From a virus, in the IMG/VR virus record IMGVR_UViG_3300045998_000148, positions 1 to 64,000 of that record: a stretch of 64,000 nt of DNA. One strand, 5' to 3'. How positions within the stretch are numbered: the first letter of the stretch is position 1; each line of letters begins with the position of its first letter. Positions 7,170 to 12,505 of the stretch are shown here, one piece after another. A program made the translations under genes and the position numbers. The notes beneath the pieces were generated by a model. The model saw nothing but the letters and a program-made list of their open reading frames with translations, made no database searches and had not been told where the DNA came from.

Positions 7170-7487
7170 CTATTTTTGTTCTTGCTCTTGTACTTCTACC
7201 ACTCTCCGCAACGTGGCGATGCTATTTTCAATCGAAAAAAAATAACGGCACTGATTGGTACAGGCCAGCTCGCCGTACACGATGTTTTTTTCAGCTTCCG
7301 GCATCAAATAAAAAAAGCCCGCTACTTTCAAAGGAACGAAGTCTTCCTCGACGACGGTTTTCACATAGGCTTGCGCCCCTTTCATCGCTTTTTGAAAATC
7401 TTCGTCTTCCCGCAGCTTGTAAAGCTCCTCTTTGAACTTGTCAAACTTCGGCGTATCGCCCGACCGCGAATCTTTTGAAGGAGGCAT
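7170..7487 (-). CDS. Hypothetical protein, paralog of 6745-7167
   Basis: Start overlaps the stop of the 1672-aa gene; shared VYGE(L/I)xC motif. Confidence 0.7.
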   Translation of the reverse strand: MPPSKDSRSGDTPKFDKFKEELYKLREDEDFQKAMKGAQAYVKTVVEEDFVPLKVAGFFYLMPEAEKNIVYGELACTNQCRYFFSIENSIATLRRVVEVQEQEQK

Positions 7488-10400: not shown

Positions 10401-12505
10401 TCTTCTTGCGACTGCCAGAAATGTTGCACGCTGTTCTTGTTGACCAAATCGACGGCCTTCCGCGCTTCGGCAATTTTGGCCTGCAAGCCTGCATTGCGCT
10501 CGGACAGCACCCGACTTCGCTCGTCTAATTTCTGGATTCGGCGATCGAAGAAGGCAATTTTTTTATCGACCTGGCGCTCAGCACTTTTGCCAATGCGGGC
10601 GATCGCCCTCTCTTCTTGCTCGGTAGCGCGGGAAGCGGCAAGCAAGCGCTGGTTTTGATTGGTCGCAATGCCGCCCGTTATCATTCCCGCGACTCCAGTA
10701 CCCGACAGGGCGGGGATGGCGACAGGCAGTACACTATTGTCGAGAGCAGAACGGACGAACTCTTTTTCGCGGACGGAGGCGATCGCGCCTGGAGTAGACT
10801 GGACAATCGCGCCTGGAGCAGACTGGACAATCGCGCCTGGAGCAGACTGGACAATCGCGCCTGGAGTAGACTGGACAATCCCATTATTTCCCTCGGAACG
10901 CTTTCGAGTACGGGCAGCAGCAGCCAGCCCCGCGCCAGCAACTCCGGCAATGGCGGCGGCGGCAATTATTTTTGTTGCGGCAGAATTTCTCCTGCCCTGG
11001 TGCGCGTTCTCTGCGGACGTATCGAGCGACTTAGCCCCCTTCAGCCGCCTCGTCCTCGCGGAAGGCTTTTCGTCTTTTGCTTCTCCCGGCAGCGCTCGAT
11101 AGTAGTAGCCACCTCCCGCTTTCTTGACCTTCACTTTTCCGCCGATGACGGCATCGCGACGGTTGGCGATCGCGGAGGCGGAGGCACTTCTGTCTTGGCG
11201 CGCGTTCCCTTGGCGAGGAAGCCTCGCCGGGGTCGCACCGCTCTTGTCAGTACGACGGCTCAATTGCCGCGAACGAGACTGCGGAAATTTCCTCGACGAC
11301 TTATTCCGTCCGTTCGGCGAGGTAGGTTTTTCGGCGACGGGCACATTCATTTCGGGCAAGTTTTTTTCGAGGTGTTCGATTAACCTGCGGCTCGAACGGT
11401 AGTTGTCTTTAATGCTGGCTACCCCGACAGTGCGCCGCACGATATCGACTAAACCTCCCTTCTCCTGGCTGAGGTAATCGCCGTACAATCCGATTTGTTT
11501 GGGCGGAGGGTATTCGTCGGCAAGCTTCCGAAGCGTCCTGCCGTAGGTGACGAGCGCCTTCCTGCGATCGGCGGGCAACTGTTTGTAATCGATGCCTTTC
11601 CAGTTGCTTAAATTTTTATCGGCGAGGCTGGCGTTGGGAACGATCGACATCTTGTGATCGACGCCGACGCCCATATCGATCCCCCAAAAAGAATCGCTTT
11701 TTTCGTCGTAGAAAATATTTCCGCGTCCTCGATCCCAATTGCCCGTAAACGTATCGAGGGCAGCTATTTTAGGCAAGTCTTCGTGTTTTGCCAGTGTCTT
11801 TAAATGTCCCGGCGTCAGTCCCTTAAAGCGATGGGCGATGTCGAGATCTTTAAATCGATGGCCGCTTTCTAGAGAGTCTACGGGCTTGCCGGGAACTAAT
11901 TCGTGGAGGGTAGCGCCAAACGGCCCTTGTTTGAGGGGGTGCTTCAACGCTGCCGGAACCATCTGCGTCGAATTGACCTTGATGCCCAGCGATCGCCCCA
12001 TCTGCGCGGAGAGTGCATCTGCACTCGCTTGCATATAAGAAATCGGCAGCTTGACTTGCTTGAAAATGTAGGGACGATCCTCTTCGTCCTTTACAAAATA
12101 ACTGTTGCCCGTCACGCCCGCCGTTATCTTTGGCTTGCTCTTGTCTAGCGTTATCTTGTCTAACTTTTCCTGCGAGATGACGTTTAGTGGCGTCTTGCCG
12201 CTATTTCGGTACGTCTCCTGCACCTTGTCAAGGACACCATAAACAGCGGCGGCAGCGATCGCACCCCTTACCGCAGCAAGGGCGACGGCGGATTTTACGG
12301 GAAGGCGAGAATCCCCGCCCGTCGCGGATTTGACCGACTCTCCCGCAGGGCGTTTCTTGCGGCTAGATTCTCGCCTGCCCTTTCCCGGCAGCGCTCGGTA
12401 ATAGTAGCCGCCGCTCGGTTTCTTGACCCTGACCCTTCCGCCGACAATGGCATCGAGGCGTCTGCTCTCTTGGTGCGCTTTTAGACTAAGAAGGTTTGTC
12501 TGCAT
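7487..12505 (-). CDS. 1672-aa modular protein: GGYY leader + HipA/PI3-4-kinase-like domain, second GGYY leader + coiled coil, third module
   Basis: GVTGNSYFV..YIFK (ATP loop/Lys), LDTFTGNWDRGRGNI (catalytic loop), WGIDMG (DFG-like); two leader copies; LVAKEVVVKGKDGKTYRSVRYVNP module. Confidence 0.8.
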   Translation of the reverse strand: MQTNLLSLKAHQESRRLDAIVGGRVRVKKPSGGYYYRALPGKGRRESSRKKRPAGESVKSATGGDSRLPVKSAVALAAVRGAIAAAAVYGVLDKVQETYRNSGKTPLNVISQEKLDKITLDKSKPKITAGVTGNSYFVKDEEDRPYIFKQVKLPISYMQASADALSAQMGRSLGIKVNSTQMVPAALKHPLKQGPFGATLHELVPGKPVDSLESGHRFKDLDIAHRFKGLTPGHLKTLAKHEDLPKIAALDTFTGNWDRGRGNIFYDEKSDSFWGIDMGVGVDHKMSIVPNASLADKNLSNWKGIDYKQLPADRRKALVTYGRTLRKLADEYPPPKQIGLYGDYLSQEKGGLVDIVRRTVGVASIKDNYRSSRRLIEHLEKNLPEMNVPVAEKPTSPNGRNKSSRKFPQSRSRQLSRRTDKSGATPARLPRQGNARQDRSASASAIANRRDAVIGGKVKVKKAGGGYYYRALPGEAKDEKPSARTRRLKGAKSLDTSAENAHQGRRNSAATKIIAAAAIAGVAGAGLAAAARTRKRSEGNNGIVQSTPGAIVQSAPGAIVQSAPGAIVQSTPGAIASVREKEFVRSALDNSVLPVAIPALSGTGVAGMITGGIATNQNQRLLAASRATEQEERAIARIGKSAERQVDKKIAFFDRRIQKLDERSRVLSERNAGLQAKIAEARKAVDLVNKNSVQHFWQSQEEMSAEAGRQQVRVKALDQWTRESAMLERQLDAIEGVRQKTIASRDRLSGTEKKQARQAGTVAADRTRQSGTSDSPAGVPQERSRKLRQSETAEDMSIYEAVEKQFGEFRREVEEIRTSNSMSPFEKEMQTYKVFEKRFPEEAQSLKLLEVMKAAVSPTQNPRGADLTKYAGIVDFLNLNATKTYSPDSLGNYVNYMTLGSKFEPNQISSVEEYRDYLKRIQKASKQPVVRLANRMRKNYANHYIRQGDRIEVANAKAKTVMETIFADTRQHLADFEAEIERRLAAIDEGKYVYLNGNIYERSKGDSKRGKRKQRRSDAVLGVTTGGDREWLKEEGAKIVRRLVDRIVSINNTYPVLPKGEIAYPLHERSNQAEVERVLAGVSSGHFLLGIGEIRKKMNEALRQIARGESPLLNEVKIAIAYHQSKESTYYRLWAKAIRDVALERSANPKVDVLPKLKAKLDRSLAQVLDDRQFNRLLPMANKALARKITSARGFNVRADRMGKPPASRQSAPGGGGKSTALKDDPDLVAKEVVVKGKDGKTYRSVRYVNPNPEEDGGTPEKVADFVADRVKDRVKEEVLKTVREEALKKVKDEAVAAVREADRPISVGNVEVVGTEAVRKKAREALSETSQSAIERGAKVVGGGDERTEKAARQLAQALSPVVEMPDGTLRVKRKRDVFRDVLGATVERYREGLRQQDEIIIEQKKEGAQREAIVRNKLLTSMKAVYDTTKELIDEGNAREELARKAASQVGTQVPSRLELVEEGAAALGGIYGAKWGAIGGLPGALAGDIMGTRTIRRGFADAKATKAAYDKLKLEPVFQQAGRLEKLELLRQEAIAELERRDVAAAEQVKKQDIGGWVVGNASAQLAEHTIPLPTPGIGAVVAMATTNDVVSVYDRYKSGEIDATAAAKEVGKIYAELPKKAVRTARQVKAGLETTLGIQKTVTAEASRTLDVLNAQNTGKIRKIQQAS
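10785..10880. repeat. 24-bp tandem repeat x4 (GAIVQS[AT]P)
   Basis: gcgcctggag(c/t)agactggacaatc repeated. Confidence 0.9.
11193..11244. repeat. 51-bp hairpin element family A, single copy
   Basis: Encodes SGATPARLPRQGNARQD in the 1672-aa protein. Confidence 0.9.

Follow-up and report, generated by a model that had tools for sequence, protein, structure and literature searches.

A candidate precursor of virion-carried cargo proteins, with an atypical kinase module, in a cyanobacterial siphovirus-type phage

What does a phage of about 100 kb encode in one open reading frame (ORF) of 1672 amino acids (aa): a single protein, or several that are later set free? The question arises at 7487..12505 in the first 64,000 nucleotides (nt) of the IMG/VR virus record IMGVR_UViG_3300045998_000148; this whole stretch (positions 1 to 64,000) is called the window below, and it forms the first 64 kb of a source contig of 99,877 bp with 53% G+C. 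An earlier interpretation made from the letters of the DNA (the sequence-only reading) had described the product, here P0001, as a polyprotein of three modules headed by a HipA/PI3-4-kinase-like one. The ORF is real, and the motif strings quoted in that reading are all present in P0001; it gave no strand, and the gene lies on the minus strand. A plus-strand reading was ruled out, the translation being full of stops.

The answer that we favor, at a probability of roughly 0.55, is that P0001 is the precursor of several cargo proteins carried in the virion of a cyanobacterial siphovirus of ~100 kb. In each cargo unit, an R-x-D-[AS] site would come first and then a small basic tag, which is Gly/Tyr-rich and hairpin-like here; a basic linker and a Gly/Ala-rich hydrophobic helix would lead from the tag to the payload. 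The first payload would be an atypical kinase of the PI3/4-kinase/HipA/CtkA clade, catalytically intact as judged by its residues, and the later payloads would be orphan regions, helical for the most part, with a Gly-zipper-like segment among them. The parts of P0001 on which this proposal depends are the following.

7487..12505, minus strand: whole P0001 ORF, 1672 aa plus stop, from ATG to stop, by translation
12452..12505, minus strand: variable N-terminal peptide, aa 1-18, ending in R-L-D; predicted cut D18/A19
12383..12451, minus strand: tag 1, aa 19-41, ending in GGYYYRALPG; DNA repeat family D10
12230..12292, minus strand: Ala/Gly-rich hydrophobic helix 1, aa 72-92; hydropathy 1.67
11084..11161, minus strand: R-R-D-A site (aa 449-452) with tag 2 (aa 452-474); predicted cut D451/A452
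10913..10978, minus strand: hydrophobic helix 2, aa 510-531; hydropathy 2.11
9425..9460, minus strand: R-S-D-A site and leader-like start, aa 1016-1027, with a basic run ahead of it; predicted cut D1018/A1019
8753..8824, minus strand: possible degenerate third tag, aa 1228-1251; low-confidence modelled beta-hairpin

The second full leader that had been read in the sequence is thus found at aa 449-474, with its hydrophobic helix following at aa 510-531. Across the whole genome, the ~23-aa tag occurs in five copies in four genes, two of them in P0001 and three heading other genes, and an R-x-D-[AS] site stands directly ahead of the tags. After each tag come a basic linker and then a Gly/Ala-rich hydrophobic helix. 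The DNA encoding the tag is itself a repeat, with copies at 11084-11161, 12383-12460 and 13917-13994 that are 72-81% identical. The three other genes headed by the tag are these.

12486-14003: LRAT-domain protein, tag at the start
6034-6723, minus strand: 229-aa protein, tag at the start
29977-32352: 791-aa lipase-like protein, tag variant at the start

The 229-aa protein carries a sixth copy at its extreme C-terminus (6037-6111, minus strand), straight after an R-T-D|A site, and a cut at this site would release a tag peptide of ~22 aa.

No match to the tag or to module 1 was found among GenBank phages. In other database proteins, kinase domains follow divergent tags that fit the pattern 'R-[IV]-W-V, five or six residues, G-G-[YF]-W-R'. 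A pattern scan of IMG/VR returned further in-frame variants: one N-terminal in an ORF of 852 aa, others ahead of a hydrophobic helix that is followed by either a DnaJ domain or a coiled coil, and one within a fusion of portal, InPase, tag and a weak LPD1 match (L012). On one viral contig (L019), two adjacent plus-strand ORFs (9151-10317 and 5519-8038) both begin with x-D-A, a tag and a hydrophobic helix; a DnaJ domain is present in one of them, a coiled coil in its neighbor. The portal fusions, of ~1270 aa, are encoded at L012:1949-5755 (minus strand) and also in L023, L028, L031, L033 and L034; they consist of a PF06381 portal, an InPase, a Gly/Trp tag that follows R-E-D-S, and the weak LPD1, with R-x-D-A sites after the portal domain. 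In gp048 of Aphanizomenon phage vB_AphaS-CL131 (CL131) and in two further IMG/VR contigs (L003 and L004), a four-Cys tag takes the place of the Gly/Tyr tag. The tag could serve as a loading signal, as a tether to DNA (both tag types are small and basic) or as an anchor at the membrane interface; its presence in the portal fusion as well suggests that loading would not be its only role.

The motif itself would link P0001 to the head of the virion. The DUF2213 protein of this genome, encoded at 36853-38610, matches phrog_530 (head maturation protease) with an E-value of 2e-47. In the protease/scaffold protein, R-x-D-[AS] occurs 10 times vs 0.41 expected (p 3e-11); in the capsid protein it occurs three times, always within the first 78 aa and ahead of the conserved fold (p 0.003); the LRAT and 229-aa proteins hold two each, and P0001 three, at aa 16, 449 and 1016. 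These five proteins account for 20 of the 35 sites in the genome. The third site of P0001 resembles the starts of the leaders ('RSDAVLG' vs 'RLDAIVG' and 'RRDAVIG'). In the 16 large kinase-bearing proteins, a site lies at the border of the kinase domain in 13, vs 4.9 expected by random placement (p<=5e-5, a value that is indicative only, because the border windows were set after the data had been inspected), and the kinase core holds one of the 51 sites although it makes up 24% of the length. Some sites lie past the kinase domain with no tag directly behind them, as in the homologs P0008 (at 1510), P0009 (at 1545) and P0007 (at 330). R-x-D-[AS] is therefore read here as the probable cut site of the head protease.

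On this basis, boundaries are predicted in P0001 at 18/19, 451/452 and 1018/1019. The predicted product of aa 19-451 would comprise tag, helix, kinase and linker; that of aa 452-1018, the second tag and its helix, then repeats, the long charged region and an orphan part; and that of aa 1019-1672, an orphan part, the possible degenerate tag at 1228-1251 and the Gly-zipper-like segment. Of the three modules in the sequence-only reading, the second leader thus stands, whereas the boundary that it drew at RADR is replaced by 1018/1019, where the strict motif puts it. Under a relaxed motif, R-x-D-[KR] (compare R-G-D-K in the 791-aa protein), additional cuts in P0001 are possible at 418, 436 and 1198.

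Evidence from virions comes from a counterpart in a related cyanosiphovirus. CL131 gp048 (1811 aa) contains at least four units of site, Cys tag and helix, and it has regions homologous to the tagged 791-aa protein (E 4e-36). Like P0001, it is composed of repeated units of site, tag, hydrophobic helix and payload; it differs in having the four-Cys tag instead of the Gly/Tyr tag, and it shows no sequence similarity to P0001 itself. In purified CL131 virions, gp048 ranked first by score (453.8), with 105 peptides and 175 peptide-spectrum matches that covered 54.6% of its sequence (PMC6293099, SI Table 5). The proteins in that study were analyzed en masse (PMC6293099), and it is therefore silent on cleavage. 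The CL131 head measures 97 nm for a genome of 112.8 kb, which would leave room for internal protein. By analogy with gp048, its architectural counterpart, we infer a location in the virion for P0001. The kinase and the Gly/Tyr tag were both absent from the 40-kb structural regions of Planktothrix phage PaV-LD and CL131.

The forms taken by relatives speak to how such a polypeptide is assembled. The giant homologs have only the kinase in common with P0001, and their other parts vary: P0008 joins Rho_N, LRAT, kinase and tag; P0009, LRAT and kinase; and P0010 and P0011, a lipase or alpha/beta-hydrolase and kinase. P0006, from a Halothece metagenome-assembled genome (MAG), has a tandem kinase, and in P0022, from an Allocoleopsis MAG, the tag is followed by the kinase alone. 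The LRAT and lipase-like modules that are fused with the kinase in relatives are separate genes in the present genome. Long ORFs of 2217 and 1748 aa occur on the contigs L003 and L004 (100 and 119 kb), and in them modules like those of the 791-aa protein are followed by 'R-K-D-S + Cys tag + helix + kinase', and these polyprotein ORFs lie directly upstream of a tape-measure homolog. Loci were scanned with one alignment (A2), the other (A1) being too diverse. The proposal in the sequence-only reading that several effector genes had been fused agrees with this picture, in which polyproteins of relatives unite the kinase with LRAT, Rho_N and lipase-like modules that are separate here and some have the kinase alone behind a tag. 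The interpretation of P0001 as a polyprotein of effectors is thus well supported by comparison of sequences.

The payload that can be named is the kinase of module 1.

11306..12223, minus strand: atypical kinase domain, aa 95-400 as modelled; from AlphaFold2 (AF2), structural search and a profile of homologs
11669..11758, minus strand: catalytic loop LDTFTGNWDRGRGN (aa 250-263, D-R-x-x-x-N) and metal-binding IDMG (aa 276-279); from conservation

The strings GVTG..YFV and YIFK lie at aa 130-138 and 146-149, and the key residues are K149, D251, N256, D258, R259, N263 and D277. Modelled by AF2 with 101 homologs in the alignment, aa 95-400 gave a predicted local distance difference test score (pLDDT) of 90.3 and a predicted template modelling score (pTM) of 0.90. 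A Foldseek search with this model returned VPS34/PI3K, CtkA and Rio2 (E ~1e-5 to 1e-6); in an all-against-representatives structural search with VIA-align, CtkA was at the top (Z 14.8, root-mean-square deviation 3.5, 214 residues aligned), followed by PI4KIIalpha (Z 13.7), CotH (13.0), actin-fragmin kinase (12.4), HipA (12.1) and MavQ (12.0). The predicted kinase fold of module 1 is solid, as the sequence-only reading had proposed, with CtkA, PI4KIIalpha and HipA among its matches. These near-ties cover both protein and lipid kinases, so that the fold does not reveal the class of substrate.

With aa 1-430 as the query, an exhaustive HMMER search yielded 351 proteins at E<=1e-3, most of them standalone proteins of ~300 aa and some of them giants of 1,000-2,200 aa. 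All 10 of the homologs that were scanned match PF00454 (PI3_PI4_kinase) and 8 of the 10 also match PF20613 (HipA-like kinase, HipA_2); P0006, P0014 and P0020 are the only ones among these ten to pass a gathering score, and P0006, which is 38% identical to P0001, passes both models (32.6 vs 27.1 bits and 30.4 vs 27 bits). Among 101 sequences, conservation of K149, D251, N256, R259, N263 and D277 is complete or reaches at least 90%, and D258, R259, N263 and D277 are invariant among the ten closest. The residue that follows D-R is variable across the family; the 'DRG' of P0001, which had been taken as a departure from the usual DRH, is therefore no defect. Module 1 is likely to be an active kinase, judging from these residues. 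It has the fold and the motif spacing of CtkA, PI4K type II, HipA, CotH and MavQ, with D-R-x-x-x-N and then a metal-binding Asp, whereas sequence identity to them is just 11-16%; it differs from these atypical kinases also in following a tag and a hydrophobic helix and in being embedded in a phage polyprotein. A HipBA toxin was considered and ruled out: by Pfam, neither P0001 nor its neighbors have a HipA_N domain or a helix-turn-helix (HipB-type) partner, and the N-terminus consists of tag and hydrophobic helix. Searches of PDB sequences with module 1 and with the profile retrieved designed helical proteins only, so that for a family with 351 detectable members no solved representative was detected by sequence search. 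The standalone homologs of ~300 aa have signal-peptide-like N-termini, and the family may also serve as secreted effectors. Small, secreted-looking members occur in uncultured bacteria with small genomes. Among genome contigs (L038-L041), kinase matches were seen in MAGs of uncultured Pseudomonadota as well as in two uncultured bacteria whose contigs measure 1.27 and 1.52 Mb.

The remainder of P0001 comprises the junction of modules 1 and 2 and the long regions behind it.

11184..11242, minus strand: 51-bp palindromic mini-element, a single in-frame copy at aa ~421-440 in the basic linker between kinase and second leader; from repeat analysis
10782..10877, minus strand: four tandem 24-nt units encoding GAIVQSxP repeats; family D8
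9452..10732, minus strand: rest of predicted product 2, aa ~592-1018, with a third hydrophobic stretch, then a long charged region (the coiled coil of the sequence-only reading) and an orphan part whose model is helical from aa 780 on
8903-8914, minus strand: RADR, aa 1198-1201, 27 aa upstream of the possible third tag
8036..8095, minus strand: Gly-zipper-like hydrophobic segment, aa 1471-1490; from sequence
7736-7771, minus strand: second hydrophobic patch, aa 1579-1590; from sequence

The dispersed repeats that had been seen at the junction are the mini-element, the leader-coding DNA repeat and the four 24-nt units. The mini-element is compatible with a tolerant linker or with a relic of gene fusion, and it proves neither. 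It recurs in frame in several genes, singly or in tandem (11184-11242, 32168-32277, 32880-33040, 43485-43645, 50380-50489 and 53986-54011), and the peptide that it encodes, of the type G-N-A-[HR]-Q-D, is similar to the relaxed cut motif. In the C-terminal part, the hairpin-like string at aa 1228-1251 and the Gly-zipper-like string at aa 1471-1490 that had been pointed out are both present. A word-based search for homologs of aa 580-1672, of near or shorter length, found no relatives, and the same search with module 1 found one protein only. Look-ups of aa 780-1235 and 1236-1672 in the ESM Atlas gave no usable lead; no close relative of the whole of P0001 was found in IMG/VR or in metagenome contigs, and comparison of the whole protein with Pfam, PHROGs and NCBIfam gave only noise or a faint match to phrog_3162. 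Fold prediction, which the sequence-only reading had suggested for each module, thus yielded a kinase for module 1 and no confident fold for aa 780-1672 (pLDDT 44), where the low-confidence model is mostly helical and forms the proposed third tag as a hairpin.

Several of these observations weigh against a cleaved and packaged precursor. The three strict sites of P0001 compare with 1.2 expected (p 0.12), so that the argument is one from their positions and not from their number, and the border windows around the kinase domains were, as stated, fixed in hindsight. P0001 itself has no Pfam match at E<=1, and the single-sequence AF2 model of aa 780-1672 (pLDDT 44, pTM 0.21) is unusable for a fold search. 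The evidence from CL131 concerns the Cys-tag type with lipase-like payloads and not a kinase. The P0001 gene belongs to a separate minus-strand cluster (5.4-14 kb) that a plus-strand primase/Gam block parts from the head-tail genes, unlike the arrangement in L003 and L004. Proteins fused to the portal (L012) would need no loading signal, and the tag would stay on the product, unlike the removable targeting peptide of T4.

The site count of P0001, which is not enriched, would also suit an uncut protein. P0001 might be packaged intact as a multidomain virion protein of the polyvalent type, with R-x-D-[AS] forming part of the tag unit, for example as a structural cap; the motif always accompanies the tag in the cargo proteins, and whole delivery is often assumed for polyvalent proteins (PMC5512222). 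This seems improbable to us, because the motif is massively enriched in the protease/scaffold protein and in the capsid propeptide, neither of which is tagged, and because in P0008, P0009 and P0007 it also trails the kinase domain with no tag directly after it. The detached gene cluster would also suit a protein made in the infected cell and anchored by its basic tag and helix in the cytoplasmic or thylakoid membrane, where it would remodel membranes or signalling or exclude superinfection: a basic aromatic segment followed by a Gly/Ala-rich helix ahead of each payload looks like a membrane anchor, and standalone relatives have signal-peptide-like N-termini. Such a non-virion role is nevertheless unlikely, given that the motif is shared with substrates of the head protease, that in L003 and L004 the kinase is fused into a polyprotein of the structural operon, that the CL131 counterpart is abundant in virions and that the tag is found in a portal fusion as well.

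Gene order offers a further thought. A tagged polyprotein gene lies directly upstream of the tape measure gene in CL131, L003, L004 and here (the 791-aa gene), and cargo of this kind might be loaded with the tape measure protein as an accessory of the tail lumen or tail tip instead of into the head. We hold this for very unlikely. The P0001 gene does not neighbor that of the tape measure; its motif, which the head protease also has, suggests the interior of the procapsid, whereas the tape-measure homolog (22057-29964) has no strict site, with ~1.9 expected from the per-residue rate; and globular hydrolase and kinase domains would not fit alongside the tape measure in the tail lumen of a siphovirus. 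P0001 is not itself a tape measure protein, as it shares nothing with this 2635-aa homolog. Finally, the kinase module might be a pseudokinase employed as a binding or structural domain, to which the missing Pfam match and an Asp in place of the usual Glu as the acidic residue of alphaC would correspond; the module has nevertheless kept its Lys, catalytic Asp, Asn and metal-binding Asp, which makes this similarly hard to credit.

For a virion-carried precursor, then, the following course of events can be proposed. The precursor would be incorporated into the procapsid, where the DUF2213 head maturation protease would cleave after Asp in R-x-D|[AS], at 18/19, 451/452 and 1018/1019, to give products of ~433, 567 and 654 aa that keep their tags. 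The products would exit together with the DNA; their hydrophobic helices would then anchor them in the host membrane, and the kinase would phosphorylate a host protein or lipid there. For P0001, we only infer packaging, cleavage, tag retention, membrane anchoring and the substrate.

There are precedents for internal proteins processed by a head protease. In T4, the internal head proteins IPI-III and Alt are processed by the prohead protease. The capsid, scaffold and ejection proteins of SPN3US are cleaved by its prohead protease gp245 behind A-x-E, and Ser is the favored residue at P1' (PMC10052503). As with the internal or ejection proteins of T4, SPN3US and phiKZ, a short motif with an acidic P1 and a small P1' is common to the capsid, scaffold/protease and putative internal proteins of the present phage, and enzymes would be carried in the head for delivery. 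The present phage differs from these in its predicted motif, R-x-D|[AS], in a putative protease of the DUF2213 type, in a tag that follows the cut and would stay on the product, in the hydrophobic helix of every unit, and in having several units in one ORF. Polyvalent proteins (Iyer et al., 2017, PMC5512222) likewise combine several unrelated effector modules in one phage polypeptide, and these modules are shuffled, fused and split; a tag of the P0001 type is also present in the portal-InPase-LPD1 fusion. On the other hand, the kinases described there belong to a different, C-lobe-less clade of Ser/Thr/Tyr kinases, and Pfam found no LPD, MuF or peptidase domain in P0001, which has one recognizable catalytic domain and orphan regions. 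No mention of NlpC or lipase was found in that work (PMC5512222), in which the tag, the layout with a hydrophobic helix and the R-x-D motif were not searched for. P0001 would be a variant of the known head-internal or polyvalent cargo proteins of phages.

The genomic setting is that of a tailed phage. Profile searches identified a PF09950 major capsid protein, a MuF-like 'minor head protein and DNA pilot', Neck1, primase and Gam. The capsid protein is nearest to those of PaV-LD and CL131, and a tape measure protein is recognized as well.

22057-29964, minus strand: tape-measure homolog, 2635 aa; E 2e-104 to L003 and 4e-96 to CL131

Because of the homology of its capsid and tape measure proteins to those of PaV-LD and CL131, the ~100-kb element is assigned, from sequence, to the cyanobacterial siphovirus-type phages. 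At its ATG, the P0001 ORF shares 20 nt with the end of the LRAT cargo gene upstream. Between the cargo genes lie two small untagged paralogous ORFs (6745-7167 and 7170-7487, minus strand) with a common C-terminal motif, YGE..C.N...F.I; the former holds a 12-nt tandem repeat (7063-7110) that encodes D-A-D-R repeats. These paralogs could act as chaperones or inhibitors of the cargo. Elsewhere in the window, the N-terminus of a GH19-type lysozyme gene (41403-42416, minus strand) consists of three near-identical 72-nt repeats, and a perfect 257-nt duplication lies near this gene (41937-42193 and 42349-42605).

It is tempting to speculate beyond this phage that site, tag (a Gly/Tyr hairpin or a four-Cys knuckle) and helix constitute a portable cassette by which diverse tailed phages load arbitrary enzymes into the head, where the head protease frees them, and insert them into the host membrane when they are ejected. 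This wider idea is tentative, and we would sooner doubt it than adopt it; the enzymes found so far in apparent cassettes are the kinase, the LRAT domain, lipase-like domains, DnaJ and InPase. If it is true, P0001 would bring a membrane-anchored PI4K/HipA-like kinase to the host, as the first case in which a virion delivers a kinase of this clade, and the cassette, if its tag is a loading signal, would be useful for packing chosen proteins into phage heads. The shared motif provides a concrete predicted specificity for DUF2213 head proteases, with exact predicted cut sites. The start of infection by cyanophages of filamentous cyanobacteria is little understood, and a membrane-anchored kinase carried in the virion together with LRAT-type and lipase-like proteins would point to active remodelling of the host membrane, or to signalling, at entry.

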